From Butyribacter sp. (GTDB lineage: Bacteria > Bacillota > Clostridia > Lachnospirales > Lachnospiraceae): a DNA stretch of 64,000 nt. Of the stretch, positions 35,137-47,719 are shown one piece after another. The stretch's first letter is position 1; each line of letters starts with the position of its first letter. Location: assembly GCA_045542435.1 (NCBI GenBank), contig JAZQLD010000002.1:33867-97866 (forward strand), in the 5' to 3' direction. Below the pieces are notes generated by a model. That model had not been told where the DNA came from. It did not search any database and saw only the letters and a program-made list of their open reading frames with translations. A program made the position numbers and the translations under genes.

Positions 35137-35853
35137 CTACACATAATAAATCTCTGCTGCTCCAAAGGCAACCTCACCAGTAATATGCAGTACCGGATTC
35201 CCTTCCTGATACTCACAGGTAGTAGGATTCTTAATCTCTAATGCACCAAAGGAAACACTGGTATTATCTACAATTTTCCAAGTCTTTGGAATGTAAAGAA
35301 TCATCGCTCCAAAGGATGCCTTAATATGCACCTGTGCGGTCCCCTGCTGAATCACTGCATTGTCAAAATACGCCTTCATTTCACCAAAGCTGGTTTCCAG
35401 ATTTGCCTTTTTAAAATTATCAGAATTAATATATTTGATAGTTCCACCAAAGCAATTAGAAAAATGAATGATATCTTCATCAGGTACATCAATCACTTCT
35501 TCGTCTTTTTGGGGATGGCTGTGGACATGCCACTTATGCTTTTTGGGAAACAAAAGATTCAGGCCAATAGTTCCAAGGAGTGCTGCACCCAAAACAGTCC
35601 ATGGTGTAAGCTCGGTGATTCCCAGCGGCTTTGCATACACGCATGCCAGCAATGCTACGGAGAAAAGAATCTCTCCAAAGTTAAGAGTTGCCAATCCCTT
35701 AATAAACATCCAAAGGAAAAGTATAGTCAGGAATACACTGATAATCGAGATATCCGTCAAATATCCTAACTTACTGAAAATCAGAGCTGCCGCTCCGCCC
35801 AGGAAACAAAATCCCCAGAAAATCTTGTCTGCATTAAAATGTCTTTTACTCAT
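35137..35853 (-). CDS. LiaF-like membrane protein, the putative partner or inhibitor of the adjacent LytTR regulator.
   Basis: Four N-terminal TM helices are followed by a beta-rich C-terminal domain (SFGEMKAYF...ASFGAMILYIP...VSFGALEI) that resembles the LiaF/DUF2154 repeat pattern. Confidence 0.55.
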   Translation of the reverse strand: MSKRHFNADKIFWGFCFLGGAAALIFSKLGYLTDISIISVFLTILFLWMFIKGLATLNFGEILFSVALLACVYAKPLGITELTPWTVLGAALLGTIGLNLLFPKKHKWHVHSHPQKDEEVIDVPDEDIIHFSNCFGGTIKYINSDNFKKANLETSFGEMKAYFDNAVIQQGTAQVHIKASFGAMILYIPKTWKIVDNTSVSFGALEIKNPTTCEYQEGNPVLHITGEVAFGAAEIYYV

Positions 35854-35875
35854 AGTTACCTCTTTTCTGCGCCGA

Positions 35876-36337
35876 TTATCTCTGGGCGCGTTTTTCTTCT
35901 AATTTGTCAATTAATGTTTTGTAATAATTTCTTGAAACATAAACCTGCTTATGGGAATTCTGAAACTCTACCACACTAGAAGACGTCAGATTCCTATTGA
36001 TAGCATAAACAAGGCTGGTATTTAAAATGGAGGATTTGGATATTCGCATAAAATGCCTTGGAAGAATTTCCTCCAACTCATAAAGTTTCAAACGGGTTTG
36101 AAACACATCCTGCGCCGTATGTGCTTCTACGCTTCCTCCCTCTGTCTCAAAGAAAAGAATCTCCTCCAGAGACAGATAATATTGCCTCTCTCCTTTGGTA
36201 AATTCCATCTTCCCTCCAGAAGATGTGGTATCTGATATGGCTCGCTGTAATTGCTGTACCTCATCAGAAAGACTACGACAACGGATGATGACTTCTTCCT
36301 CTTGTAGATTCTCATCCAGTTCGATTCGTATTTTCAT
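35876..36337 (-). CDS. LytTR-domain DNA-binding protein without a receiver domain.
   Basis: The segment ILFFETEGGSVEAHTAQDVFQTRLKLYELEEILPRHFMRISKSSILN is the LytTR signature. The N-terminal region of about 50 aa has no phospho-acceptor domain. The ATG at 36337 follows the RBS ggag. Confidence 0.75.
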   Translation of the reverse strand: MKIRIELDENLQEEEVIIRCRSLSDEVQQLQRAISDTTSSGGKMEFTKGERQYYLSLEEILFFETEGGSVEAHTAQDVFQTRLKLYELEEILPRHFMRISKSSILNTSLVYAINRNLTSSSVVEFQNSHKQVYVSRNYYKTLIDKLEEKRAQR

Positions 36338-36479
36338 TTTAACTCCATTCTTCTTTTCAATTCTTTGCAATATATACTTCACAAAGAATAATTAAAACAG
36401 TTTTTTCCGGAAAAGTAATTTGCTTTGCTGTTTGAACACATTATAGGGAAGGAAAAAGTAAATGTAAACCCTATTTCGC

Positions 36480-36570: not shown

Positions 36571-37236
36571 CTAGGAAACCAGCTTTCCATCCCTCATCTG
36601 AATCCGTCTCTGACACCGAGAAGCAATTCCCTCATCATGAGTTACCAAGACAATAGTCTTTCCTCTTTTATGCAGATTCAGAAAAATTTGCAGGATCTCT
36701 TCTCCGGTAGCATGGTCTAAATTGCCCGTAGGTTCATCTGCCAGAATCAAATCTGCCCCGTTGATTAACGCCCGGGCAATAGCAACTCTCTGTTTCTGAC
36801 CTCCCGACAATTCCCCCGGCAGATGAGATTCTCTGTTTTCCAATCCTAGCATCCTTACTAATTCCTTATAAACTATTTCATCTACTTTCCTTTTAGCAAT
36901 TAAAACCGGCATAATAATATTTTCCCGTACATTCAGTTCTTCAATCAACTTAAAATTCTGAAATACAAAGCCAACATTTTCACATCGATATTCTGCTTTT
37001 TGATTTGCTGTAAATCTGCTGATATCTTTTCCCTGATAAAATATAGAACCAGAGCTTGGACTATCCATGGCACCAATCATATGCAGCAATGTCGATTTTC
37101 CACTTCCACTGGCACCGGTAATAGCAACCAGTTCATTTTTACAGATTGATAAATCCACTCCATTTAATGCATATACCATTCCTTCTCCCTTACCATAAGC
37201 TTTTACCAGATTAGATACCTTTAATAATTCTTCCAT
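36571..37236 (-). CDS. ABC transporter ATP-binding protein (MacB/FtsE-like class).
   Basis: Walker A GASGSGKST, the signature LSGGQKQR and Walker B ILADEPTGNLD are present. Confidence 0.9.
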   Translation of the reverse strand: MEELLKVSNLVKAYGKGEGMVYALNGVDLSICKNELVAITGASGSGKSTLLHMIGAMDSPSSGSIFYQGKDISRFTANQKAEYRCENVGFVFQNFKLIEELNVRENIIMPVLIAKRKVDEIVYKELVRMLGLENRESHLPGELSGGQKQRVAIARALINGADLILADEPTGNLDHATGEEILQIFLNLHKRGKTIVLVTHDEGIASRCQRRIQMRDGKLVS

Positions 37237-37255
37237 AGCCGACCTCTCCTCTATG

Positions 37256-40051
37256 CTATTTTCTTTCCTTAAATTGTGACAGATAAATCAAAACAATAAT
37301 ACTGATAAATGCCAGCATTCCCAGCACTGCTGCCAGCGTAGCCAAAACCACCGGCTGATTTCCATAATCAAAGTTTGGAATCAAATAAATCCATGGTTTC
37401 TCCTTGCTTAATTGTTCCATAGTTCCACTATAGAAAGCAACATTCCTCATCGTGCTGCACTGAATACATAATGCCAAAAAGGACATCACTGAAATAAAAC
37501 TCAAGCCCCCTCCCAGAAGTATCCATCTAACATATTTTCTTATGTTCATATATATTAACTGGCTCTTTTTCATTCCAATATAAGAAAGAGTTTCCATCTC
37601 TGACTGATTTTTCTGCATAGCCACCCAGACAATAACACAAATGGTAATTCCCCCAAGAAGAATCAGGTAGATAAACAGTGTATAAAATACAGCCATCACC
37701 TTTCTCTGTCCCTTTTCCTGTACATATATCAGTTCCCCTACGTCAAAGCATGTCATATATTTTGCCTGCGCAAGTGCCTGATACCATGTCCCTTGAAACT
37801 CTTCCGCCCCAGAAACATCATTTAAAAGAACGCCTACACGGGTGTCATTTCTATCCGGCAGCTGCCAGACGGAAAATGCCTCTTTTGATGTAAGTACATT
37901 AATGGTTGCTCCCAGATAATCTTCAAAATAGAAATTATCCTCATATTCATTCATATAAATAATCGCACTCACCTTTGGTGAAAATCTCTTTATCTTATAA
38001 TCACCTTCCGAAACGAAATCGCACAGAGGTAATTCTTCTCCCAGCGAAAAAGCATTTTTCTGTCGCTCATTTTTTATAATTACTGCTACTTCTTCTCCCG
38101 AAGCCATTTTTTTATAATCAAGTACTCCTTCCATTTTTATAAAAGAGTCCTCGTCCTTCACCCATTCATTAATCTGTTGAAGGTCATTTTCCTGTACACC
38201 AACGGTTGGCACATTAAAGAGTTTTTGATTCTTCTTCACCCCCAGCTCTTTGTACCACTTCCTCAATTCCTTTGTGCTGCGTATCTGTTCCTTCTGACTA
38301 TTTAAGTAAATACATTTGATATCATCCTTAGGATAAATCAGCGCACTGGACCGGTTAATGGTAAGACCATGTATCTGCTTTACTTGCGGACACTGCTCCA
38401 GCTTTTCAAAATGCTTCTGCGATACTCCTGTATCATGCGCTCCCTCCAAATAGCAATTCTCTTTCTCTATGGTCTCCTCTGTACGATCCATATAATAATC
38501 AAAATTTCCTACCCCGACATTTTCTATATGTTCTTCCAATTGAGAATAATCATACTCCGCCTTGCAACGGAAAAACAAATATCCAAAAACCGCCAAAACC
38601 ATGATGCTACAAATACAGAAGCATGGAATGCACCTGTTTATAAAGGATTCCCTTCCGAGATTTCGGTTTAATATTTCGTATAGGGTACTTCCTCTCTTCT
38701 TTTTCAATTTGTATACCTTAGAACGCTCTATTTCCAAAGGCATAATTCCCAGAACCGGTCCCACTCCTAACGCCAATGCCAAAACCTCTGCCACTGTAAT
38801 AACAACTCCCGGATAAATCCAAGGCTCTCTTGTCACTTCTTTAACATATGGCAGATAATATTGATATGCCTCATCCACATGCAAAGCAGAAGGCATACTT
38901 ACGCCAAGATTATTCCAGATTTTTAAGGAAAACTCATAGCCTTCACAACCAATCCAGTATCCCAACACTAAAGAAATCACATAACAAATAAAATAAAAAA
39001 ATAGCAAATGTTTTATAAGTACGGACTGTTTCATTCCCAGGCAAAGCAGCGTACTAAACTGCGTCTTTTTCCTCTCTACAATGATTCGTATTACATTATA
39101 TATACTAATCAGTGCCACAAAGCCAATCAAAAAGCAAAGAACCGGAATCATATATTCCGTGTAAATATCCTTTGCAGACTCATGGCTCTCCATTACGGAT
39201 GACAATTTCTGCTCCGATAAATTGTATTCCCCAAATGTCTTCTTATTTACCAAATCCATCTGAATCGTCAATCTGGCAAACAATTCAATCTCACTAGAAA
39301 AACAAAAATGAGAATCCCATTTCTCATTAAAATAATACTTAACTAAAAATTTTTCTCTATTATTATCATCCATAGACTTCAATGTCACAAAACAATGAGT
39401 CTTTTTTGTTGAAAGCTTTTGATAAGCTTCTTTATAAGAAAGATAAGCCATAGGAAAATCTCTTAGCTCACCGGTATCCGTTCCAAATCGGTATTTCGAA
39501 ACATCCTCTGTGGCTGTTTTTCGCAGACATCGAATGGTTCCTTCTGAATTACCTTGCCGTAATTCTATCACCCCGCATAAAGAATACTTTTTTATTTCCC
39601 CATCAACCTCTAACTGGATTTCCTCTCCTAACTCCCCTTGATATCCATTTTCCTTCAAAGTAATTCTATCCATACAGATTTCATGCTCTTCTCTAGGATA
39701 CTCTCCCTTTAACAAAGGAATCCATACTAATTCCTGTGTCGCTTTCCCCTCCATCGCACCAACAGAAATCTTATTTCCTGATTTATCTACCCGGTATTCC
39801 CCTAATTCATGCAGTAATCCCATCTTCTCCACTGTATTATCAGCTTCTAATGCCTCCAGACAAGTCTCTGACACCCCATAGAAAGAAAAGTCATAGTTTC
39901 CTCTCTCTTCTAACATCTCTGATAGTTCACACATCTTCATGGTGCGCACAAAAAGGAGAGCCATCATTAAACTGGCAACACCAAATATAACAATGGCTAC
40001 TAAGCTAATATGTATTTTTGATTGGTTGGTTTTCCACATGTTTTTTAACAT
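37256..40051 (-). CDS. Large FtsX-family ABC permease (931 aa, two FtsX-type TM modules with large extracytoplasmic domains).
   Basis: It has the MacB/BceB-like architecture. It lies directly upstream of its ATPase gene with a 19-nt gap. Confidence 0.7.
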   Translation of the reverse strand: MLKNMWKTNQSKIHISLVAIVIFGVASLMMALLFVRTMKMCELSEMLEERGNYDFSFYGVSETCLEALEADNTVEKMGLLHELGEYRVDKSGNKISVGAMEGKATQELVWIPLLKGEYPREEHEICMDRITLKENGYQGELGEEIQLEVDGEIKKYSLCGVIELRQGNSEGTIRCLRKTATEDVSKYRFGTDTGELRDFPMAYLSYKEAYQKLSTKKTHCFVTLKSMDDNNREKFLVKYYFNEKWDSHFCFSSEIELFARLTIQMDLVNKKTFGEYNLSEQKLSSVMESHESAKDIYTEYMIPVLCFLIGFVALISIYNVIRIIVERKKTQFSTLLCLGMKQSVLIKHLLFFYFICYVISLVLGYWIGCEGYEFSLKIWNNLGVSMPSALHVDEAYQYYLPYVKEVTREPWIYPGVVITVAEVLALALGVGPVLGIMPLEIERSKVYKLKKKRGSTLYEILNRNLGRESFINRCIPCFCICSIMVLAVFGYLFFRCKAEYDYSQLEEHIENVGVGNFDYYMDRTEETIEKENCYLEGAHDTGVSQKHFEKLEQCPQVKQIHGLTINRSSALIYPKDDIKCIYLNSQKEQIRSTKELRKWYKELGVKKNQKLFNVPTVGVQENDLQQINEWVKDEDSFIKMEGVLDYKKMASGEEVAVIIKNERQKNAFSLGEELPLCDFVSEGDYKIKRFSPKVSAIIYMNEYEDNFYFEDYLGATINVLTSKEAFSVWQLPDRNDTRVGVLLNDVSGAEEFQGTWYQALAQAKYMTCFDVGELIYVQEKGQRKVMAVFYTLFIYLILLGGITICVIVWVAMQKNQSEMETLSYIGMKKSQLIYMNIRKYVRWILLGGGLSFISVMSFLALCIQCSTMRNVAFYSGTMEQLSKEKPWIYLIPNFDYGNQPVVLATLAAVLGMLAFISIIVLIYLSQFKERK

Positions 40052-40081
40052 AGTAAACTCTCCTCTTGATTAAGTAACCAT

Positions 40082-40711
40082 CTACATTCTCTTCTCCCTA
40101 CCCCTATGGTACACTTCTCCAATGGCAAAAAACAGTACTCCTGCTGTCAAGTAAAAAAGAGAAGACTGCATTCCTTCAAATCCCAATGCTGTCACAATAG
40201 TTGAAATTCGATTTCCCGAAAATAAAGCGTAGATAAAAACTACTACAAACCCCACAGATACAGAAGCACACACCATACTTAACATATAAAAACAACCGGA
40301 AAACATAAAGCTTTGAAAAAGCAAAACTATCATGAGATCTTCGCTGTATGGTATGTTATTAATAATAAACAAGAATATTGGAATCAATGTCAGCAGATAA
40401 AAAAACAAATATAATAATGTATCAGCAATTTTACTGCTTTTCTCTATCCACAATAATTCCCTGCCCTCTCCTTCTATGTATTGCTGCATCAGAAGTAATT
40501 CCCACCATACTGCCAGAAGTGGAACAAAAAAAACTAATTGCTCTACAAAGTAGTCCATATAATATTCGGGATCCACCTGCATATATATCCACACGCTTAT
40601 AGGAATTATAATATAATTGATAAAGAGGGGAAGGTATTTCAGTATTCCCATACCTTTCCACTGAATCCTTATCCTGTCAATCCAATAATCTATTTTACTT
40701 TCAAAAGACAT
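40082..40711 (-). CDS. Hypothetical polytopic membrane protein, a possible permease partner of the upstream ABC-2-type ATPase.
   Basis: It has about six TM helices and overlaps the ATPase gene by 22 nt. Confidence 0.5.
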   Translation of the reverse strand: MSFESKIDYWIDRIRIQWKGMGILKYLPLFINYIIIPISVWIYMQVDPEYYMDYFVEQLVFFVPLLAVWWELLLMQQYIEGEGRELLWIEKSSKIADTLLYLFFYLLTLIPIFLFIINNIPYSEDLMIVLLFQSFMFSGCFYMLSMVCASVSVGFVVVFIYALFSGNRISTIVTALGFEGMQSSLFYLTAGVLFFAIGEVYHRGREKRM

Positions 40712-41529
40712 AAATATCCATCCTCCACCGTAGCTTCTACTGTTTCAACTTCCCTTTCCCTTAATAATACCCGGAATATCTTATTTCCATTTCTTAGGAA
40801 AGATTTTTCAACATACACAATCTTTTCATTGTCCAATTCAGCCTCAGAAACTTCTTTCACCCTGCCTGATGCATAATTTTGTATTTCTTCAATACTCCCA
40901 ATCCTTACGATTTCCCCCTGATCCAAAACAATAACCGAATCGCAGCAAGCCTCTACATCATCCACGATGTGGGTTGATACAATTACAATCTTGTCTTTAC
41001 TGAGATTAGAAACAATATCCTTAAAACGCATTCTTTCCTCTGGATCCAATCCCGCTGTAGGTTCATCAAATAATAAGATTGGAGGGTCTGCCAAAAGCGT
41101 CTGGGCAATTCCAAGCCTTCTTACCATTCCACCGGACAGTTTCTTTATCCGGGTATTTTTCTGGTCAAGAAGATTGACCTTCCTTAAACATTTTTCAATT
41201 TCTTCTTCTCGTAATTTTCTGTCTATTTTTCTAATATTACACATATACACCATCATCTCGTGTACCGTTAATTCTGGAAACAGACCAAATTTTTGTGGAA
41301 GATAGCCTATCTTTTGACATCCCTTTGCATTTACTTTTGTATTATTATACTTAATCTTCCCATGAAAAGAATATAAACCTGTGATACATCTCATTAATGT
41401 AGTTTTTCCTGCACCATTAGGACCTAATAAACCATATACCCCATTCTCCAATTTACATGTTATATTACATAATATTTCTTTCTTTTTTATCTTCTTTTGT
41501 AATTTTTCGATTTGTAGTATATTCTCCAT
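40690..41529 (-). CDS. ABC-2-type ATP-binding protein.
   Basis: Walker A GPNGAGKTT, the signature LSGGMVRR and Walker B LLFDEPTAGLD are present, with a C-terminal extension. Confidence 0.9.
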   Translation of the reverse strand: MENILQIEKLQKKIKKKEILCNITCKLENGVYGLLGPNGAGKTTLMRCITGLYSFHGKIKYNNTKVNAKGCQKIGYLPQKFGLFPELTVHEMMVYMCNIRKIDRKLREEEIEKCLRKVNLLDQKNTRIKKLSGGMVRRLGIAQTLLADPPILLFDEPTAGLDPEERMRFKDIVSNLSKDKIVIVSTHIVDDVEACCDSVIVLDQGEIVRIGSIEEIQNYASGRVKEVSEAELDNEKIVYVEKSFLRNGNKIFRVLLREREVETVEATVEDGYLCLLKVK

Positions 41530-41564
41530 ATGACCTCCCTAGTTATCTCTAATCCTAAATTTCA

Positions 41565-43322
41565 CTAATCCAGCATCTTTAATGCCGCCTCTAACTCCGC
41601 CTCATCCTCTTCGGTAGGAATATAATACGTATTCCCTTGCTTACAATACTTCTCATAATCTTGAGGAACCTTATACAATTGGTCAACAATCTGATTATTA
41701 CCAAAACATACATTATTATAATTTTCCTCAGGTGCCGCGAAGAAAATGACATTATCCCCCTGAAACTCTATCTCATTAAAAAAGTTTTTATAGGACTCAT
41801 ATATTTGAGGATCTTCTGGTGTATTTTCTTTATCCAGACAGGAATAGACTACCTTTACACCTTCAATATCCATATCTCTCAGAAAATAACTTCCCATAAT
41901 AGTCAATCCATTACTTGCACCGTTGTAATGAAGAATTTTCCTATTTCTTTCTACAACCGTCTTCTCTGTAGTTATATTCGTAAAAATTTTCATTTTTTTA
42001 GGAATTGATATCTTCAGCGAAAAGGTCATATTATCATCTGGCAGTTCTTGTGCAAAACAGATATTATATGAATCACGTATAAACACCGTTTTCCATCCTG
42101 CCATAGGATAATAGGCATAGTTCGCCGGCAAAGTGACTCCTTGAGAAGTACTATAAAAATATTGATTCGCACCTTCATACTCAAAGGTTATACTTTTTAA
42201 ATTCTTATTCTTATTTATGACTTCAACATAATCTCCATCCTGATAATATTCCAGAAGATTTCCATTTTGATCCTTTACTGCCTTTAGTTTATAAGAATGA
42301 TATAACGTAAACTGATAGGAATCCAAATCTTCTGTACTTAAATCAGCAGTGACCTCTGCTTTCAAAATATCCTTAATCTGTATATCCATATCATATCCTA
42401 ATATAGCAAAATCATTTTTATTTTTCTTCACATAATTTGCCTGATCTTCCTTTTGGCGGTCTACGGTATAATAATACTGCTCCCCCATCCACCTATCAAA
42501 ACCATTAACAACAGGTAATGCATAGGATGCACCGGAAGGCTGCCAAAACATAACAAAGCAAAGACAAGAAAGTATCAGACTGATTCCAAATCCAATCTTC
42601 TTCTTTGCCAAAAATAAAATAACTGCCAAAACTGCCAAAATCCAAAACATGACACAATAGATATGTATATTTTCTACTGACACAAAATAAAAGGGGTCTG
42701 TAATGGCACCGGTTGCCTGTGAATCAAATAGCGCAAATAAAGTTCCAAGTTTAAATAACATCTCATTATTAAGATTCCATCCTACTACACTTTGCAGAAA
42801 AGTAGTATCAAAGCAATAAAAACAAACAAAAAGCATACACATTGCAACGATTCTATTCTTTATACAGGAAATTAACCATCCTATTAGTTCTGCCAGAATA
42901 ATCGGCAAAACCACATAAATAATAGCAAATCTAATAAAATAGTTTTGTAATTCCCTCTGGGAATACCCCAGACCTTTACTCTGCATAATCAGGAAAAAAA
43001 ATATGACACCCGAAACCAGCATTCCATATATCGTAATCCATATCATGTCATATTTCTGGCTCTTTATATCTAAACATTTACAGCAAAGCAACTCATTAAA
43101 TTCATCCTTACGGAAAGAATATAATACTTCATAAGAAAAAAACATCATAAACAGAAAAATATACGGCATAACCTGAAAGGTAACACACATTCCACCTTGC
43201 AAAAATACACCAAATCCACTTTCTCTTATAAAAATAGAATATAGCAATGCCAATGAACAAATCAGCAGTAAAGACATCAATGCCGTTTTCCTATATATTT
43301 TTTTGAAATGTAAAATTAACAT
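41565..43322 (-). CDS. Large membrane protein with about nine N-terminal TM helices and a C-terminal extracytoplasmic domain of about 300 aa. Function unknown; it is a candidate immunity or export component.
   Basis: No family was recognised. The ATG at 43322 follows the RBS aaggaga. It sits between the small secreted protein gene and the ABC ATPase gene. Confidence 0.55.
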   Translation of the reverse strand: MLILHFKKIYRKTALMSLLLICSLALLYSIFIRESGFGVFLQGGMCVTFQVMPYIFLFMMFFSYEVLYSFRKDEFNELLCCKCLDIKSQKYDMIWITIYGMLVSGVIFFFLIMQSKGLGYSQRELQNYFIRFAIIYVVLPIILAELIGWLISCIKNRIVAMCMLFVCFYCFDTTFLQSVVGWNLNNEMLFKLGTLFALFDSQATGAITDPFYFVSVENIHIYCVMFWILAVLAVILFLAKKKIGFGISLILSCLCFVMFWQPSGASYALPVVNGFDRWMGEQYYYTVDRQKEDQANYVKKNKNDFAILGYDMDIQIKDILKAEVTADLSTEDLDSYQFTLYHSYKLKAVKDQNGNLLEYYQDGDYVEVINKNKNLKSITFEYEGANQYFYSTSQGVTLPANYAYYPMAGWKTVFIRDSYNICFAQELPDDNMTFSLKISIPKKMKIFTNITTEKTVVERNRKILHYNGASNGLTIMGSYFLRDMDIEGVKVVYSCLDKENTPEDPQIYESYKNFFNEIEFQGDNVIFFAAPEENYNNVCFGNNQIVDQLYKVPQDYEKYCKQGNTYYIPTEEDEAELEAALKMLD

Positions 43323-43424
43323 AATGTTCTCCTTGAAATCCGGCAACTGCCAATTATCCTTCCATTGGATAACAGCAATTGCCTTAATCAATATTTAAAT
43401 TGCTATACTAATAGTATGACTTGT

Positions 43425-43826
43425 CTAATAATTTGACAATATCACATTTGCATAGCATTGTTTTTTCGGATTGCTCTTTTTATTTCCATACATTACACTT
43501 TTCGCCACTGTATATGCATTTTGATTAATATAATAATATTTCGTAAATGCGGACATATCTGCATAAGAAAAATGAGAATGATACACATTACAAGACGAAC
43601 TATTTGGTCCCTTATAAATATAATACTCTACGTAATACTTTGAACTTGACGATACTGCACCAATCATCCTATATGTCCCTGTGGTATTTCCCAAAAGAGC
43701 CGTAGATTTGGATTTTTCATCAGTGGATAATACCGCCGATACACTTCCGGCTTTTGCAACCGGAACAGAAGAGCCGACCAGCATTAATGCTAATGCTGCA
43801 ATTAGTAATTTTTTCTTGTTTATCAT
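43425..43826 (-). CDS. Small secreted Tyr/Ser-rich protein (133 aa precursor), a candidate bacteriocin-like effector.
   Basis: It has a Sec signal (LLIAALALMLVGSSVPVAKA). The mature part of about 108 aa has two Cys. The RBS is aggaga. The call rests on context (agrD upstream, membrane and ABC genes downstream), and sequence similarity to known bacteriocins could not be established by eye. Confidence 0.5.
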   Translation of the reverse strand: MINKKKLLIAALALMLVGSSVPVAKAGSVSAVLSTDEKSKSTALLGNTTGTYRMIGAVSSSSKYYVEYYIYKGPNSSSCNVYHSHFSYADMSAFTKYYYINQNAYTVAKSVMYGNKKSNPKKQCYANVILSNY

Positions 43827-43908
43827 CTGTATTCTCCTTCTATTTTACGTTAAATTTTCTGGTTTCCTAATTAAGTTTTTCTTACAAATTTCTTTTTACA
43901 AAATCTTC

Positions 43909-44076
43909 TTATCTTTTGTATACACCTTCTTTCCTTAACTCCCGAATTCCTTCTGGTACCTCAGGTTCATAATAATTTCCTCTACAGCAAAATGGTGCTA
44001 TTTGTGATACAACCGCTACTAAAGCACATAACTTTGCTCCATTGCGAAATATTAGTGTTTTGATGAATGTTTTCAT
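43909..44076 (-). CDS. agrD: AgrD-like autoinducing-peptide precursor (55 aa), absent from the ORF track.
   Basis: The translation is MKTFIKTLIFRNGAKLCALVAVVSQIAPFCCRGNYYEPEVPEGIRELRKEGVYKR. It has an amphipathic leader, Cys residues, and then a YEPEVPEG tail resembling the conserved AgrD recognition tail (S. aureus DEVEVPKEL, C. perfringens HQPEEPKSL). The RBS aggagg lies 8 nt upstream of the ATG. Confidence 0.75.
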   Translation of the reverse strand: MKTFIKTLIFRNGAKLCALVAVVSQIAPFCCRGNYYEPEVPEGIRELRKEGVYKR

Positions 44077-44150
44077 TCATATCGCCTCCTTTTGTATTTT
44101 TACTTTCGCATTGTTACTATAACAGTAAAATTCTTCTTATAACTAAAATC

Positions 44151-44224
44151 AGGGACGAGTGGTAAAAAAAGGGGGACGAAATGCAAAAATGCATCTCGTC
44201 CCCCTTTTTTTACCACTCGTCCCT
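44151..44224. promoter_or_regulatory. Perfect palindrome (29-bp arms, 16-nt spacer) between the divergent agrD and agrB genes. It is a candidate dual LytTR-regulator operator.
   Basis: agggacgagtggtaaaaaaagggggacga (44151..44179) is the exact reverse complement of 44196..44224. Each arm contains GGGACGA twice with starts 21 bp apart. A TTGATT-18-TATAAT promoter (44229..44258) follows towards agrB. A TGtTATAGT extended -10 lies on the agrD side. Confidence 0.5.
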
Positions 44225-44288
44225 AGTTTTGATTATAGCTAGAAAAAAATATTATAATACATCATTATATATGACGGAGGAAAAAGCC

Positions 44289-44909
44289 ATGGTTGTATCA
44301 GATTATCTCAGTAAAAAATTAACAGAACAAATTATTCAATATAATTTTATTCCCGAAGAACAAAAAGCATCCTATGAGTATTGTTTTGACTTTGTTTTTG
44401 ATTTATTTTTTTATAATTCAAGTTTATTTTTGATTGGGTTGGCTTTTGATAAAGCATTTCTGTCCATCCTTTATATTATCACCCTTAGTCCACTAAAAAT
44501 GCTTGCAGGTGGATATCATGCAACATCCCGTTTAAGGTGCAGTTTCCTATCTTATTCAATTTTTATGATGGTTTTATTTCTTTCAGATAAAATACTTTCC
44601 TTTATTTCCACTCCGTTTTTGTTAGTTGGCTACATTATAATGAATACGTTAGTTATTGCGTTTTCACCAGTTGCACCACCACAACATCACTTCAATAATG
44701 TTGAAAAAAAGAAGCTTCGAACTTTGTGCTTGTTTTACTCTATATTGCTTCTCTTCCTATATATTATTCTTCTCTTGAAAACACAAACCATTTACTACAC
44801 TTGTATGACCTTATGCATTATGATAATATTGATAAGTCAAGTGATTGGTCACATCCAATATACTAAGAAAGGTGTTGAAAATTATGACTCTCAAAATCGC
44901 CCTTTGTGA
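44289..44909 (+). CDS. agrB: AgrB-family AIP-processing membrane peptidase.
   Basis: It is polytopic and about 207 aa. The segment SPLKMLAGGYHATSRLRCSFLSY matches the AgrB pattern R..AGG.HA....C. The start is set at the ATG at 44289 after the RBS ggagg. The track ORF start at 44181 lies inside the palindrome. Confidence 0.8.
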   Translation: MVVSDYLSKKLTEQIIQYNFIPEEQKASYEYCFDFVFDLFFYNSSLFLIGLAFDKAFLSILYIITLSPLKMLAGGYHATSRLRCSFLSYSIFMMVLFLSDKILSFISTPFLLVGYIIMNTLVIAFSPVAPPQHHFNNVEKKKLRTLCLFYSILLLFLYIILLLKTQTIYYTCMTLCIMIILISQVIGHIQYTKKGVENYDSQNRPL

Positions 44910-45627
44910 TGACAATACAGACATTCTTGATTTTTTATTTTCTACCTTGTGGAATTATCAGGTTGCTACAGACGTTAATCTTACTATAGATAAATACACA
45001 AATCCCAAAGAATTACTCAATGCATATAAAGAACCTGGAGCATATCATATCATTTTACTTGATATTGAAATGCCAGAAATGAATGGAATAAAAGTTGCTG
45101 AGATTATTCGAAAAATGAAAGATCGACAGGTAATTATTGTTTTTATTAGTAACTTTCCTCAATATATGCAGGATAGTTTTGCTGTCCACCCTTTTCATTA
45201 TTTACAAAAACCATTAAATGAACATACAATCTATGAGTTAATGCATGAGATTATAGAAGAAATCCAAGAGTCGCATATTTTGTATAGCATTGTCAGTACA
45301 GACACTTCGGAACAAACCATTAATATAAATGATGTTCTATATATAGAAGTAATCAATGGAAAAGCAAAGGAACTTGCATTTCATTTTTTTGATAAAACAA
45401 TACTCGCTCGCGGAACTTTGCTTCATTGGGAAAAAGAACTTACAGAATATAATTTTTATTTATGTCGAAGAGGTATTTTGTTAAATCTACAACATGTACA
45501 TTATTTTGATAAAAACAACATTGTTTTAGACAACGGCAAAAATATTCCTGTCAGCCGCACAAATTTAAAGAGATTAAAAGACTTATATATAAATCGTGTT
45601 GTTATTTTTCGAAATAATAAATTATAA
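44884..45627 (+). CDS. agrA: LytTR-family response regulator (AgrA-like).
   Basis: The receiver domain reads IALCDDN...ILLDIEMPEMNG. The C-terminal LytTR domain reads VLYIEVINGKAKELAFHF...RRGILLNLQHV. It overlaps agrB by 26 nt. Confidence 0.8.
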   Translation: MTLKIALCDDNTDILDFLFSTLWNYQVATDVNLTIDKYTNPKELLNAYKEPGAYHIILLDIEMPEMNGIKVAEIIRKMKDRQVIIVFISNFPQYMQDSFAVHPFHYLQKPLNEHTIYELMHEIIEEIQESHILYSIVSTDTSEQTININDVLYIEVINGKAKELAFHFFDKTILARGTLLHWEKELTEYNFYLCRRGILLNLQHVHYFDKNNIVLDNGKNIPVSRTNLKRLKDLYINRVVIFRNNKL

Positions 45628-45650
45628 CATCAAAGGAGGAGATTTCTATT

Positions 45651-46970
45651 ATGGAAAATTTTGTTTCAATCATAGCCTATATATTTGATTTCTTTATTTT
45701 ACTCATTTATTTAAGAGAAATTGTTGGTAAGCGAAAAACCACAGTTCCTTTGTTTTGTTATTACTGTTGCTTTGTTTTCGTAGAACTCCTTTTTATTTTC
45801 AACGAACACTTTATTACTTTTGCAAACGCAAATAGTTCGCTCTATTTCAACACCAGCATTAGTCTTGCTACCACTTTTCTGCTTTGCTTTCTTTTTGAAA
45901 GTTCTATAAAGCATAAAGTGTTTTCAACCATCTCTTTTCAGGTGTTTGTATTGCTAAGTGAGAATATTCTTACCTTCCTTGTAAAAACAATAAATCCTGA
46001 AATATTTAAATTAGGATTTCCTTTTCTTAATACTTTTTTTAACTTTGGTTCAAAATGCATTTTATTGTTGATATTAGGTGCTTTTATCAAATTTTGGAAT
46101 AGAAAAAGAAATAGTGATTCTTTGGAATATGCGATTTTGCTATTTTCTACACCAGTTATTTCATTGATAATTATGTTGGCAGCACCAGCAAAGCAAATTG
46201 CAAAATATGAAAGTGATTTCTTCTATAGCCTCCTTTTCTCTGCCTTAATTATTCTAAATTTGATTAATTATATTTTGCTGCTAAAAATAAATCAGAATAA
46301 TGAAATACAATTGAAATTTAAACAATCGCAACAACAGATTACTTTTCAAAAGGAAAAATACAAACAGCTAAATGCCGCCTATCGAAATACTAGAAGCGTA
46401 GTTCACGATACTAAAAATCACTATTTCGCTATACAGAAATTAATCGAAGAAGAAGCTTACGAAAGACTAAAAGGATATACATTTAGTGCCATCAATTCAT
46501 TAGAAAGCAAATATGCTGCTTACAATACCGGCAACTTGGTATTAGATTCCTTTCTGACAAATTATATTAACGTTACCGCAAATGAAGGAATTCAGTTTTC
46601 TTCCGAAATTAATGTCTCTGCTGATAGAATCCCTGTCAATGATTATGACTTATGTGTACTCCTTGGAAATCTTTTGGATAATTGCTTAAATGCCTGCCGA
46701 CAAAACATAGAGATGCCTAATTCCATTTCTATACAGATTACTACAGATGATTATGATTTATTTACAATTCATTCCACAAATACCTATAACCCATTATCCG
46801 AACCAAAAAAAGAAAAAAACTCCTTTTATCATGGATATGGCATGGATAATATGAAAAATGTTACAGAAAAATATCATGGAACTTTTGAAGCTATGGCAAA
46901 AGAAAAATTTCATGTATATATTATCATCCCTATCATTGAGGTAAAAAAAAGAATACAAAAACCAATATAG
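45651..46970 (+). CDS. agrC: AgrC-like sensor histidine kinase (HPK10 / GHKL type).
   Basis: It has about six N-terminal TM helices, the H-box VHDTKNHYFAI, the N-box GNLLDNCLNA and the G-box HGYGMDNM. Confidence 0.8.
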   Translation: MENFVSIIAYIFDFFILLIYLREIVGKRKTTVPLFCYYCCFVFVELLFIFNEHFITFANANSSLYFNTSISLATTFLLCFLFESSIKHKVFSTISFQVFVLLSENILTFLVKTINPEIFKLGFPFLNTFFNFGSKCILLLILGAFIKFWNRKRNSDSLEYAILLFSTPVISLIIMLAAPAKQIAKYESDFFYSLLFSALIILNLINYILLLKINQNNEIQLKFKQSQQQITFQKEKYKQLNAAYRNTRSVVHDTKNHYFAIQKLIEEEAYERLKGYTFSAINSLESKYAAYNTGNLVLDSFLTNYINVTANEGIQFSSEINVSADRIPVNDYDLCVLLGNLLDNCLNACRQNIEMPNSISIQITTDDYDLFTIHSTNTYNPLSEPKKEKNSFYHGYGMDNMKNVTEKYHGTFEAMAKEKFHVYIIIPIIEVKKRIQKPI

Positions 46971-47020
46971 CGAGGTTGCCTAGGCTTCCCCGCTATATTA
47001 AACTTTCTCTTTATCTCTCC

Positions 47021-47719
47021 CTACACATTCTGCCCATAATACGCATTCGCCCCATGCTTCCGGTAATAATGCTTATCCTGCAATTCCTGTGGAGCCGGTT
47101 GATTCTGTGGATTAATCATCTCACAGCGGGCAGCCATCTTCGCCACCTCTTCCAGCACCACTGCATTGTGTACCGCTTCCTCTGCGTCCTTGCCCCAGGT
47201 AAATGGTCCATGATTCTTGCAAAGAACCGCAGGAGTTGCCACGTAGTCCAGCTTCAGACGTTCAAATTCATCCGCAATCAGTACGCCGGTATTTTTCTCA
47301 TAGGCTTCGTCGATTTCTTCCGTGGTCAGATTCCGTACACAAGGTACTTCTCCGTAGAGATAATCTGCATGGGTCGTTCCATAGCAAGGAATTCCTCTTC
47401 CTGCCTGTGCCCAACTAGTAGCCCAGGAAGAATGCGTATGTACGATACCTCCTACATTTGGAAAACGATTGTAAAGAACCACGTGAGTTGCGGTGTCAGA
47501 AGAAGGATTATACTTTCCTTCTACCTTATTTCCTTCCAAATCAACAACCACCATATCCTCAGGAGTCAGCTTATCATATTCCACGCCGCTTGGCTTAATG
47601 ACAAAAAGTCCCTTCTCCCGGTCAATACCGCTGACATTCCCCCAGGTAAAAGTCACCAGACCATACTTTGGTAAAAGCATATTCGCTTCGTACACTTCTT
47701 TCTTTAATTCTTCTAACAT
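47021..47719 (-). CDS. araD: L-ribulose-5-phosphate 4-epimerase.
   Basis: It is near-collinear with E. coli AraD ([25 protein letters not shown]...PSSDT.TH...[24 protein letters not shown]). Confidence 0.9.

Follow-up and report, generated by a model that had tools for sequence, protein, structure and literature searches.

Organization of the Locus

Within a 64,000-nt stretch of contig JAZQLD010000002.1 from Butyribacter sp. (hereafter "the window", whose own numbering is used for all of the coordinates given) there is an agr-type quorum-sensing locus, the genes and regulatory features of which are collected in Table 1. Its plus strand carries the genes for a predicted AgrB membrane endopeptidase/cyclase, an AgrA-like response regulator and an AgrC-like histidine kinase, in the order agrB-agrA-agrC, and the open reading frame (ORF) for the propeptide of the autoinducing peptide (AIP), agrD, is found on the opposite strand, upstream of agrB and 212 bp away from it, which makes the layout a departure from the canonical agrBDCA architecture. 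Taken as a whole, the locus probably represents a real and complete agr-type AIP quorum-sensing system with variant wiring.

AgrB matches PF04647 with an E-value of 2e-29 (102.5 bits vs. a gathering score of 23), shows approximately six hydrophobic segments, and carries G74, G75, H77 and C84, all of which are invariant across 37 relatives, with H77 and C84 corresponding in position to the catalytic His/Cys pair of S. aureus AgrB; no match to the AgrB sequence was found in the PDB. The AgrC-like kinase has approximately seven hydrophobic segments within residues 1-211 and an H-box (VVHDTKNH) at residue 252. The longest agrB ORF (242 aa, recorded as such in protein P0003 of the NCBI assembly) begins inside the intergenic palindrome at 44181, and the start at 44289 (206 aa), backed by a ribosome-binding site (RBS) and by the homologues, is supported as the likelier one. 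An earlier note on this DNA had placed the agrD ORF, agrB, the regulator gene and the kinase gene at the coordinates of Table 1, all of which hold, as do the AGGAGG that it had read at 8-nt spacing from agrD, the 26-nt overlap between the regulator gene and agrB, the AgrB family membership it had proposed to verify (the PF04647 match above), and its statement that there is no propeptide gene among the plus-strand genes, these being too closely packed to fit any further gene between them.

The relatives' loci were gathered with a four-sequence AgrB alignment (from genomes and metagenomes) and supplemented with the loci of peptide-family members, as AgrB alone, when used as a query of genome contigs, gave no match, and alignments of 37 and 8 relatives were too divergent for scan patterns; an exhaustive phmmer search found one close relative of this AgrB, all of the others being at most 40% identical. 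In 16 distinct loci (the window, L004, L006, L008, L009, L013, L015, L024, L029, L036, L037, L038, L040, L042, L045 and L047), originating from metagenome-assembled genomes of a Lachnospiraceae bacterium, Eubacterium sp. and Coprococcus sp., as well as from gut metagenomes, agrD is divergent from agrB-regulator-kinase. The divergent orientation that the earlier note had pointed out is thus borne out, and it is no peculiarity of this genome but a clade-wide feature.

Table 1. Features of the agr-type locus and of the genes following agrD (positions are those of the window).
Feature	Position	Strand	Remarks
agrD	43909..44076	-	55-aa AIP propeptide ORF; TIGR04223 match, codon comparison, family alignment
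agrD RBS (AGGAGG)	44085..44090	-	8 nt before ATG; read directly; kept in L001-L004
agrD peptide parts			leader, residues 1-29/30; predicted ring, C31-R-G-N-Y35; follower, Y36-E-P-E-V-P41-E-G... to the end
agrB	44289..44909	+	predicted membrane endopeptidase/cyclase, 206 aa; GGAGG at 44276..44280; H77 and C84 present
agrA-like response regulator gene	44884..45627	+	Response_reg (PF00072) and LytTR (PF04397); 26-nt overlap with agrB
agrC-like histidine kinase gene	45651..46970	+	HATPase_c_5 (PF14501; GHKL), 53.3 bits
Palindrome	44131..44244	.	114 nt, separating agrD from agrB; its arms, of 55 nt each, are 85% complementary
Left-arm box pair	44152..44162, 44173..44183	+	GGGACGAGTGG and GGGACGAAATG, 21 bp start to start; candidate proximal operator of the agrD promoter
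Right-arm box pair	44192..44202, 44213..44223	-	GGGACGAGATG (reverse complement) and GGGACGAGTGG, 21 bp apart; candidate proximal operator of the agrB promoter
Putative agrD promoter	44116..44146	-	-35 TTAGTT (44141..44146), 19-nt spacer, -10 TATAGT (44116..44121)
Putative agrB promoter	44229..44258	+	TTGATT, 18 nt, TATAAT
Probable cargo genes	36571..43826	-	co-directional with agrD, presumably co-transcribed
133-aa secreted protein gene	43425..43826	-	first after agrD, 82-nt gap, no obvious terminator
608-aa membrane protein gene		-	cargo; follows the 133-aa secreted protein gene
ABC ATPase gene	40690..41529	-	cargo
209-aa membrane protein gene		-	cargo; after the first ABC ATPase gene
931-aa FtsX-type permease gene		-	cargo; after the 209-aa membrane protein gene
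Second ABC ATPase gene	36571..37236	-	cargo; after the FtsX-type permease gene

The agrD Gene and Its Predicted Signal

The peptide encoded by agrD reaches 19.7 bits against the NCBIfam AgrD model TIGR04223 (curated cut-off of 19, E-value of 7e-4, residues 17-45). A further indication of the ORF being a gene comes from L004, a metagenomic contig having a 70% identical AgrB and the same araD and FGGY-kinase genes on its right flank, in which the same 55-codon ORF occupies the same divergent position. Between the two copies 23 codons differ, 17 of them synonymously and 6 non-synonymously (conservative replacements), and throughout residues 30-55 all nine of the nine differences are synonymous; as there are 17 synonymous vs. 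6 non-synonymous changes, with none of the latter in the ring and the follower, agrD behaves as a translated gene under purifying selection. The assignment of the ORF to the AgrD family made in the earlier note is, then, upheld by the TIGR04223 match, by the codon conservation and by the homologous ORF sitting at the same position in the 15 other loci. Its description of the gene as unannotated is not borne out, given that the identical 55-aa sequence is already recorded as a predicted protein of an NCBI assembly and that NCBI gives members of the family the name "cyclic lactone autoinducer peptide".

A word-indexed homology search with the single agrD peptide returned two clusters only, and it missed the exact sequence because of a clustering artefact: the 55-aa peptides of the window and L004 (P0265 and P0267) had been placed in a "90% identity" cluster represented by P0266, a 401-aa protein with no sequence relationship to them. 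A profile built from ten peptides, on the other hand, led to 113 clusters (several of them so named by NCBI) with a common layout of leader - x - C-R-x-x-[W/Y/F] - Y-Q/E-P-x-x-P-[E/D]-G-L, the Cys/follower pattern of which is kept in 110 of the 113. C31, R32 and P41 are invariant in the ten-sequence alignment, and Y36 is at least 90% conserved.

The AIP of C. thermocellum, verified by liquid chromatography with tandem mass spectrometry, has a ring of S25-F29, which is followed by Tyr30, five residues before the conserved Pro35 (PMC5322536). Applying the same ring-end rule here gives C31-Y35, i.e., CRGNY, as the predicted ring and Y36-EPEVP41 as the follower, which is the division that the earlier note had arrived at and which fits the invariant C31, R32 and P41 and the near-invariant Y36. 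The same note had called the adjacent Cys unusual; it is not, as the residue preceding the ring Cys is a Cys in 36 of the approximately 110 clusters (S, T, I, G, V and more being found in the others), and it is the second Cys that is the conserved nucleophile.

A signal other than a simple five-residue CRGNY thiolactone is nevertheless a possibility to be reckoned with, even if we regard it as rather doubtful: a ring of six residues (either CRGNYY or CCRGNY, the latter with closure through C30), a peptide without a tail turning into a head-to-tail lactam by an S-to-N acyl shift, or an N-terminal Cys exotail enabling ring expansion by native chemical ligation. R. cellulolyticum provides a precedent, its six-residue tail-less AIP CWFWSY becoming a homodetic lactam (PMC8251862), C30 stands directly before the ring Cys both here and in the 36 clusters just mentioned, and the N-terminal cleavage site is not readable from sequence. 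Against such alternatives speak the invariance of C31 rather than C30, in place of which two thirds of the family have T, S, V or something else, and the grouping of the near-invariant Y36 with the conserved follower; Y36 also stands where the mass spectrometry-verified C. thermocellum peptide has its first follower residue (PMC5322536).

The Intergenic Palindrome

The palindrome separating agrD from agrB is made up of four boxes of approximately 11 bp, each arm being a direct-repeat pair exactly 21 bp apart that ends 5 bp upstream of a -35-like hexamer, and such paired boxes are found nowhere else in the window. When nine-mers at least 8/9 identical were counted across the 16 intergenic regions, 64 repeat pairs fell at a spacing of 21, the count never exceeding 4 at the remaining spacings between 10 and 40 (shuffled sequences averaged 0.77 and reached 13 at most). 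Aligned across the loci, the geometry reads as box, approximately 10 nt with a T-run, box, 5 nt, TTGGTT-like hexamer, 18 or 19 nt, TATAAT-like hexamer, agrD; the position and spacing of the putative agrD promoter are the same in the oriented intergenic sequences of L004, L006, L008, L015, L024, L029 and L038, and the putative agrB promoter is among the five top-scoring promoter-like sites in 43300..47100 (10/12 matches each). The box sequence itself varies from locus to locus while the geometry stays constant, as would be expected if the boxes co-evolve with the regulator.

In S. aureus, AgrA binds two direct repeats directly upstream of P2 and P3, promoters having suboptimal spacers of 18 and 20 nt (PMC4227749), and the arrangement seen here has that same LytTR/AgrA P2-P3 geometry. 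As L006 has no palindrome but a single repeat pair, beside the agrD promoter, the common denominator of these loci would seem to be a LytTR-type operator on agrD.

Alternatively, the palindrome might be mainly a nucleic acid structure, that is, a bidirectional intrinsic terminator or insulator, or an attenuator hairpin of the 5' leader, instead of a protein operator. Its inner arms fold at -40.5 (plus strand) and -44.9 (minus strand) kcal/mol with z-scores below -12, so if transcribed it would give a very stable hairpin; it is bordered by A7 and T7 runs, it is kept in L001-L004 with the substitutions (those in L001, L002 and L004) paired between the arms, and the dyad is present in most of the related loci as well. 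The hairpin is, however, upstream of both putative promoters, so that no gene-bearing transcript is expected to cross it, and L006 keeps the direct-repeat pair with its T-run spacer without the second arm and, hence, without any hairpin. Exact 21-bp phasing and a fixed 5-bp offset to the -35 element are properties of LytTR sites, not of terminators; a terminator scan made no call on the palindrome, and Rfam yielded over 43000..47200 only sub-threshold miRNA-precursor matches on the hairpin, which are artefacts. The terminator reading, examined by folding, was ranked low given L006 and the promoter positions, and an RNA-level or terminator role is, overall, considered improbable. The simplest account of the hairpin potential is that it arises as a side effect of two operators lying back to back.

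One locus deserves a separate mention: L012 (1823-3000) has a 288-aa ORF beginning with MDKYLDSFREMISLRGL upstream of agrB, which may be read as integrase-like from its N-terminal sequence, and it is the only one among 13 loci to lack the 21-bp repeat operator.

Genes Downstream of agrD and agrD-Deleted Alleles

An all-against-all BLAST of the probable cargo genes following agrD showed them to be mostly unrelated across the loci, even though a small protein together with an FtsX/MacB-type ATP-binding cassette (ABC) module recurs in L004, L042 and L045; L038 has a peptidoglycan-binding hydrolase-like protein instead. As the cargo differs between the loci, the output of the system would be variable, and it plausibly consists of secreted proteins together with transporters. 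A "putative cyclic lactone autoinducer peptide" is co-regulated with the next three genes in the transcriptome of Anaerobutyricum soehngenii (PMC8914356), which, if that peptide belongs to this subfamily, would agree with agrD being the first gene of an operon.

Directly downstream of the ABC transporter genes of the window there is a pair of genes (35137..36382, minus strand) for a stand-alone LytTR-domain protein (168 aa, PF04397, E-value of 6e-20) and then a LiaF-like membrane protein (238 aa), which possibly form another LytTR regulatory pair close to the agr cargo. A similar hairpin (GCGTTCTTTTC...GAAAAGAACGC) is present in two distantly related loci, L004 (7440-7510) and L007 (4605-4660), where it lies between the position of agrD and the first of the cargo genes.

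Two natural deletions of agrD were encountered. L034 (1400-1925) differs from L015 (300-910), a locus of the same species, by a precise deletion of 256 nt, delimited by two ATGAAGAAA repeats, that removes agrD exactly and fuses its 5' untranslated region and start codon to the next gene, which encodes a secreted protein, leaving agrB-agrA-agrC and the four boxes intact; it is a natural signal-negative, receptor-positive allele. In a human-gut species (L024:1950-3010 vs. L018:2560-3010, and also L016-L023, L025-L027 and L031), agrD with a core of CCRGQW is present in 5 contigs, and 12 contigs lack approximately 0.66 kb, from behind codon 2 of agrD through most of the next, 165-aa, gene, the promoter, the boxes and agrB-agrA-agrC being unchanged. 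P0263 looks like a frameshifted copy of the L024-type agrD (core CCRGQW).

Such deletions, with agrB-agrA-agrC intact in both of the species, together with the marginal score of the AgrD model and the ORF apparently being grouped in transcription with the cargo and not with agrB, could be taken to mean that the small ORF is not a substrate of the adjacent AgrB at all, but a leader or regulatory peptide or a bacteriocin-like cargo product, the true AIP being encoded elsewhere. We find this very improbable: the ORF co-occurs with agrB in the 16 loci even though the cargo changes from one to the next, its Cys and Y-x-P-x-x-P follower are typical of AgrB substrates, and searches of all small ORFs of the window with a regular expression, and of 38-50 kb with the family hidden Markov model, gave no second AgrD-like ORF.

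Distribution of the Divergent Architecture

The divergent position of agrD is the standard architecture of an AgrB/AgrD clade found in a large group of gut Lachnospiraceae, and a regulator-kinase-agrB-agrD order on a single strand was seen only in L043, the weakest family hit. That the orientation is a recent local inversion or an assembly artefact specific to this genome, as might be suspected from the canonical single-strand agrBDCA order, was rejected as having next to no chance of being true, because the identical layout is there in independent assemblies and in distant relatives with approximately 30-40% AgrB identity. The system is of a known kind, and it is its conserved variant architecture for which no description could be found: neither the divergent agrD nor the peptide core turned up in the openly searchable literature (the core strings CRGQW, CCRGQWY and CRGNYY being absent from the papers listed for them), supplements and subscription journals being outside of that search.

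Some of the loci have further peculiarities of organization. L029 (357-2545) has one agrD between two agrB genes, one of them convergent, and the other divergent and followed by the regulator gene. The divergent agr locus of L038 and L039 (1-725 in each) adjoins relaxase and MobC genes, which places at least one member of the family on what would be a mobilisable element. L003 (1-130), from a strain near-identical to the window organism, agrees with the window as far as the agrB -10 element, agrD and the palindrome included, and then diverges completely where the window has the RBS and start of agrB, the contig ending there; the head of agrB may have undergone an insertion or been replaced.

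Proposed Mechanism and Implications

By analogy with characterised AgrB/AgrD pairs, AgrB, through H77 and C84, would cut off the C-terminal follower YEPEVPEG... and close the C31-Y35 thiolactone CRGNY, with a separate protease presumably removing the leader. The exported peptide would then be sensed by the AgrC-like kinase, which would phosphorylate the REC-LytTR regulator, and the latter would bind the four boxes of the palindrome, with one box pair driving agrD and the co-directional cargo (small secreted protein, ABC/FtsX transporters), and the other pair driving agrB-agrA-agrC. Most likely, the regulator activates both agrD (along with the variable downstream genes) and agrB-agrA-agrC, and as part of this whole model we hold it to be likely that agrD occupies an RNAIII-like position, i.e., that the signal gene heads the output operon.

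Several observations weigh against this model. The margin by which the agrD peptide passes TIGR04223 is small (19.7 vs. 19), and the peptide has no Pfam match at an E-value of 1 or lower, the staphylococcal AgrD family PF05931 (which the earlier note had suggested as a check) included; that model is built on staphylococcal sequences, so nothing beyond this narrow family is excluded by the missing match. The agrB promoter, being close to consensus, may require no activation. Of the 16 loci, three do not pass the strict 8/9 repeat criterion, the dyad still being visible in them by eye. Lastly, the small secreted cargo proteins are without a Pfam match, those of the cargo being to ABC/FtsX domains only.

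As to why such a locus might matter, agr signalling has been much studied in pathogens, but the Lachnospiraceae that dominate in the gut and rumen have received next to no attention in this respect, and the locus in the window is one example of a widespread conserved architecture (16 distinct loci, 113 peptide clusters) that would tie the autoinducer gene to the output operon, not to the processing operon, behind a compact four-box operator. For annotation, this means that agrD in this clade is best sought on the opposite strand upstream of agrB. More tentatively, and with the odds in our estimation leaning against the picture holding in full, there might be a Lachnospiraceae-wide agr variant in which the signal gene is the first cistron of an AgrA-activated output operon with interchangeable cargo, "listener-only" deletions occur, and a Cys-Cys rearrangement of the signal is possible. 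If this were true, the cargo, often a small secreted protein and an FtsX/ABC transporter, could be a bacteriocin-like weapon with its exporter or immunity, and in the Cys-Cys subgroup, to which the window belongs, an N-terminal Cys exotail could drive a rearrangement of the native chemical ligation type to a new cyclic scaffold. As the signal gene is physically apart from agrB-agrA-agrC, simple deletions could create "listener-only" strains, which would make no peptide and keep their cargo under peptide control, two such alleles being seen in gut metagenomes; with natural agrD-deleted strains of this sort, signal cheating or eavesdropping among gut bacteria could be put to a direct test. Peptide masses, the operator sequence, promoter positions and the candidate regulated cargo are all testable predictions, the calculated [M+H]+ values being 594.245 for cyclised CRGNY, 697.255 for its form with a Cys exotail or for cyclised CCRGNY, 844.323 with Phe-Cys in front, and 757.309 for a CRGNYY ring.

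Comparison with Known Systems

The S. aureus agr system has the same four components as the locus described here, namely, an AgrB peptidase bearing the His/Cys pair, an AgrD that contains a Cys and has, in both, an acidic follower with Pro, a polytopic HATPase_c_5 kinase and a REC-LytTR regulator. The AgrA box of S. aureus is ACAGTTAAG, whereas the boxes here are GGGACGAGTGG-like. Unlike in S. aureus, agrD is outside of the agrB operon and, at the head of the putative divergent transcript, takes the place of RNAIII, the genes run agrB-agrA-agrC, the two repeat pairs adjoin each other in a single 114-nt palindrome, and no RNAIII-like RNA was detected with Rfam over 43000..47200. Divergent promoters, a direct-repeat pair before each of them, and over-long -35/-10 spacers are features that the two systems share (PMC4227749).

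The clostridial agr systems (agrBDCA of C. acetobutylicum, agrBD of C. perfringens and C. difficile, and those of R. cellulolyticum and C. thermocellum) have propeptides of the same TIGR04223-type family with a Y-E/Q-P-x-x-P follower and a ring ending before Tyr, as verified by mass spectrometry in C. thermocellum (PMC5322536) and predicted here. They differ in having agrD after agrB on the same strand, or as an orphan in C. thermocellum, instead of divergently, and in the family described here position 2 of the ring is an invariant Arg and position -1 is often occupied by a second Cys.

The fsrABDC locus of E. faecalis is, likewise, agr-like and has a non-canonical gene order, with a LytTR regulator activating the operon of the propeptide, processing enzyme and kinase as well as effector genes; fsrD, however, follows fsrB co-directionally and in frame, the locus begins with the regulator gene, and the lactone is formed through Ser. 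In ComCDE, BlpRH/BlpC and PlnABCD, the pheromone gene and the output operons (bacteriocins and ABC transporters) lie behind direct repeats of 9-11 bp with 21-bp phasing, and small secreted proteins and ABC transporters are often the cargo of LytTR three-component loci. The pheromones of those systems, in contrast to the peptide predicted here, are linear and of the double-glycine type, leave the cell through a peptidase-domain ABC transporter, and are not cyclised by an AgrB.

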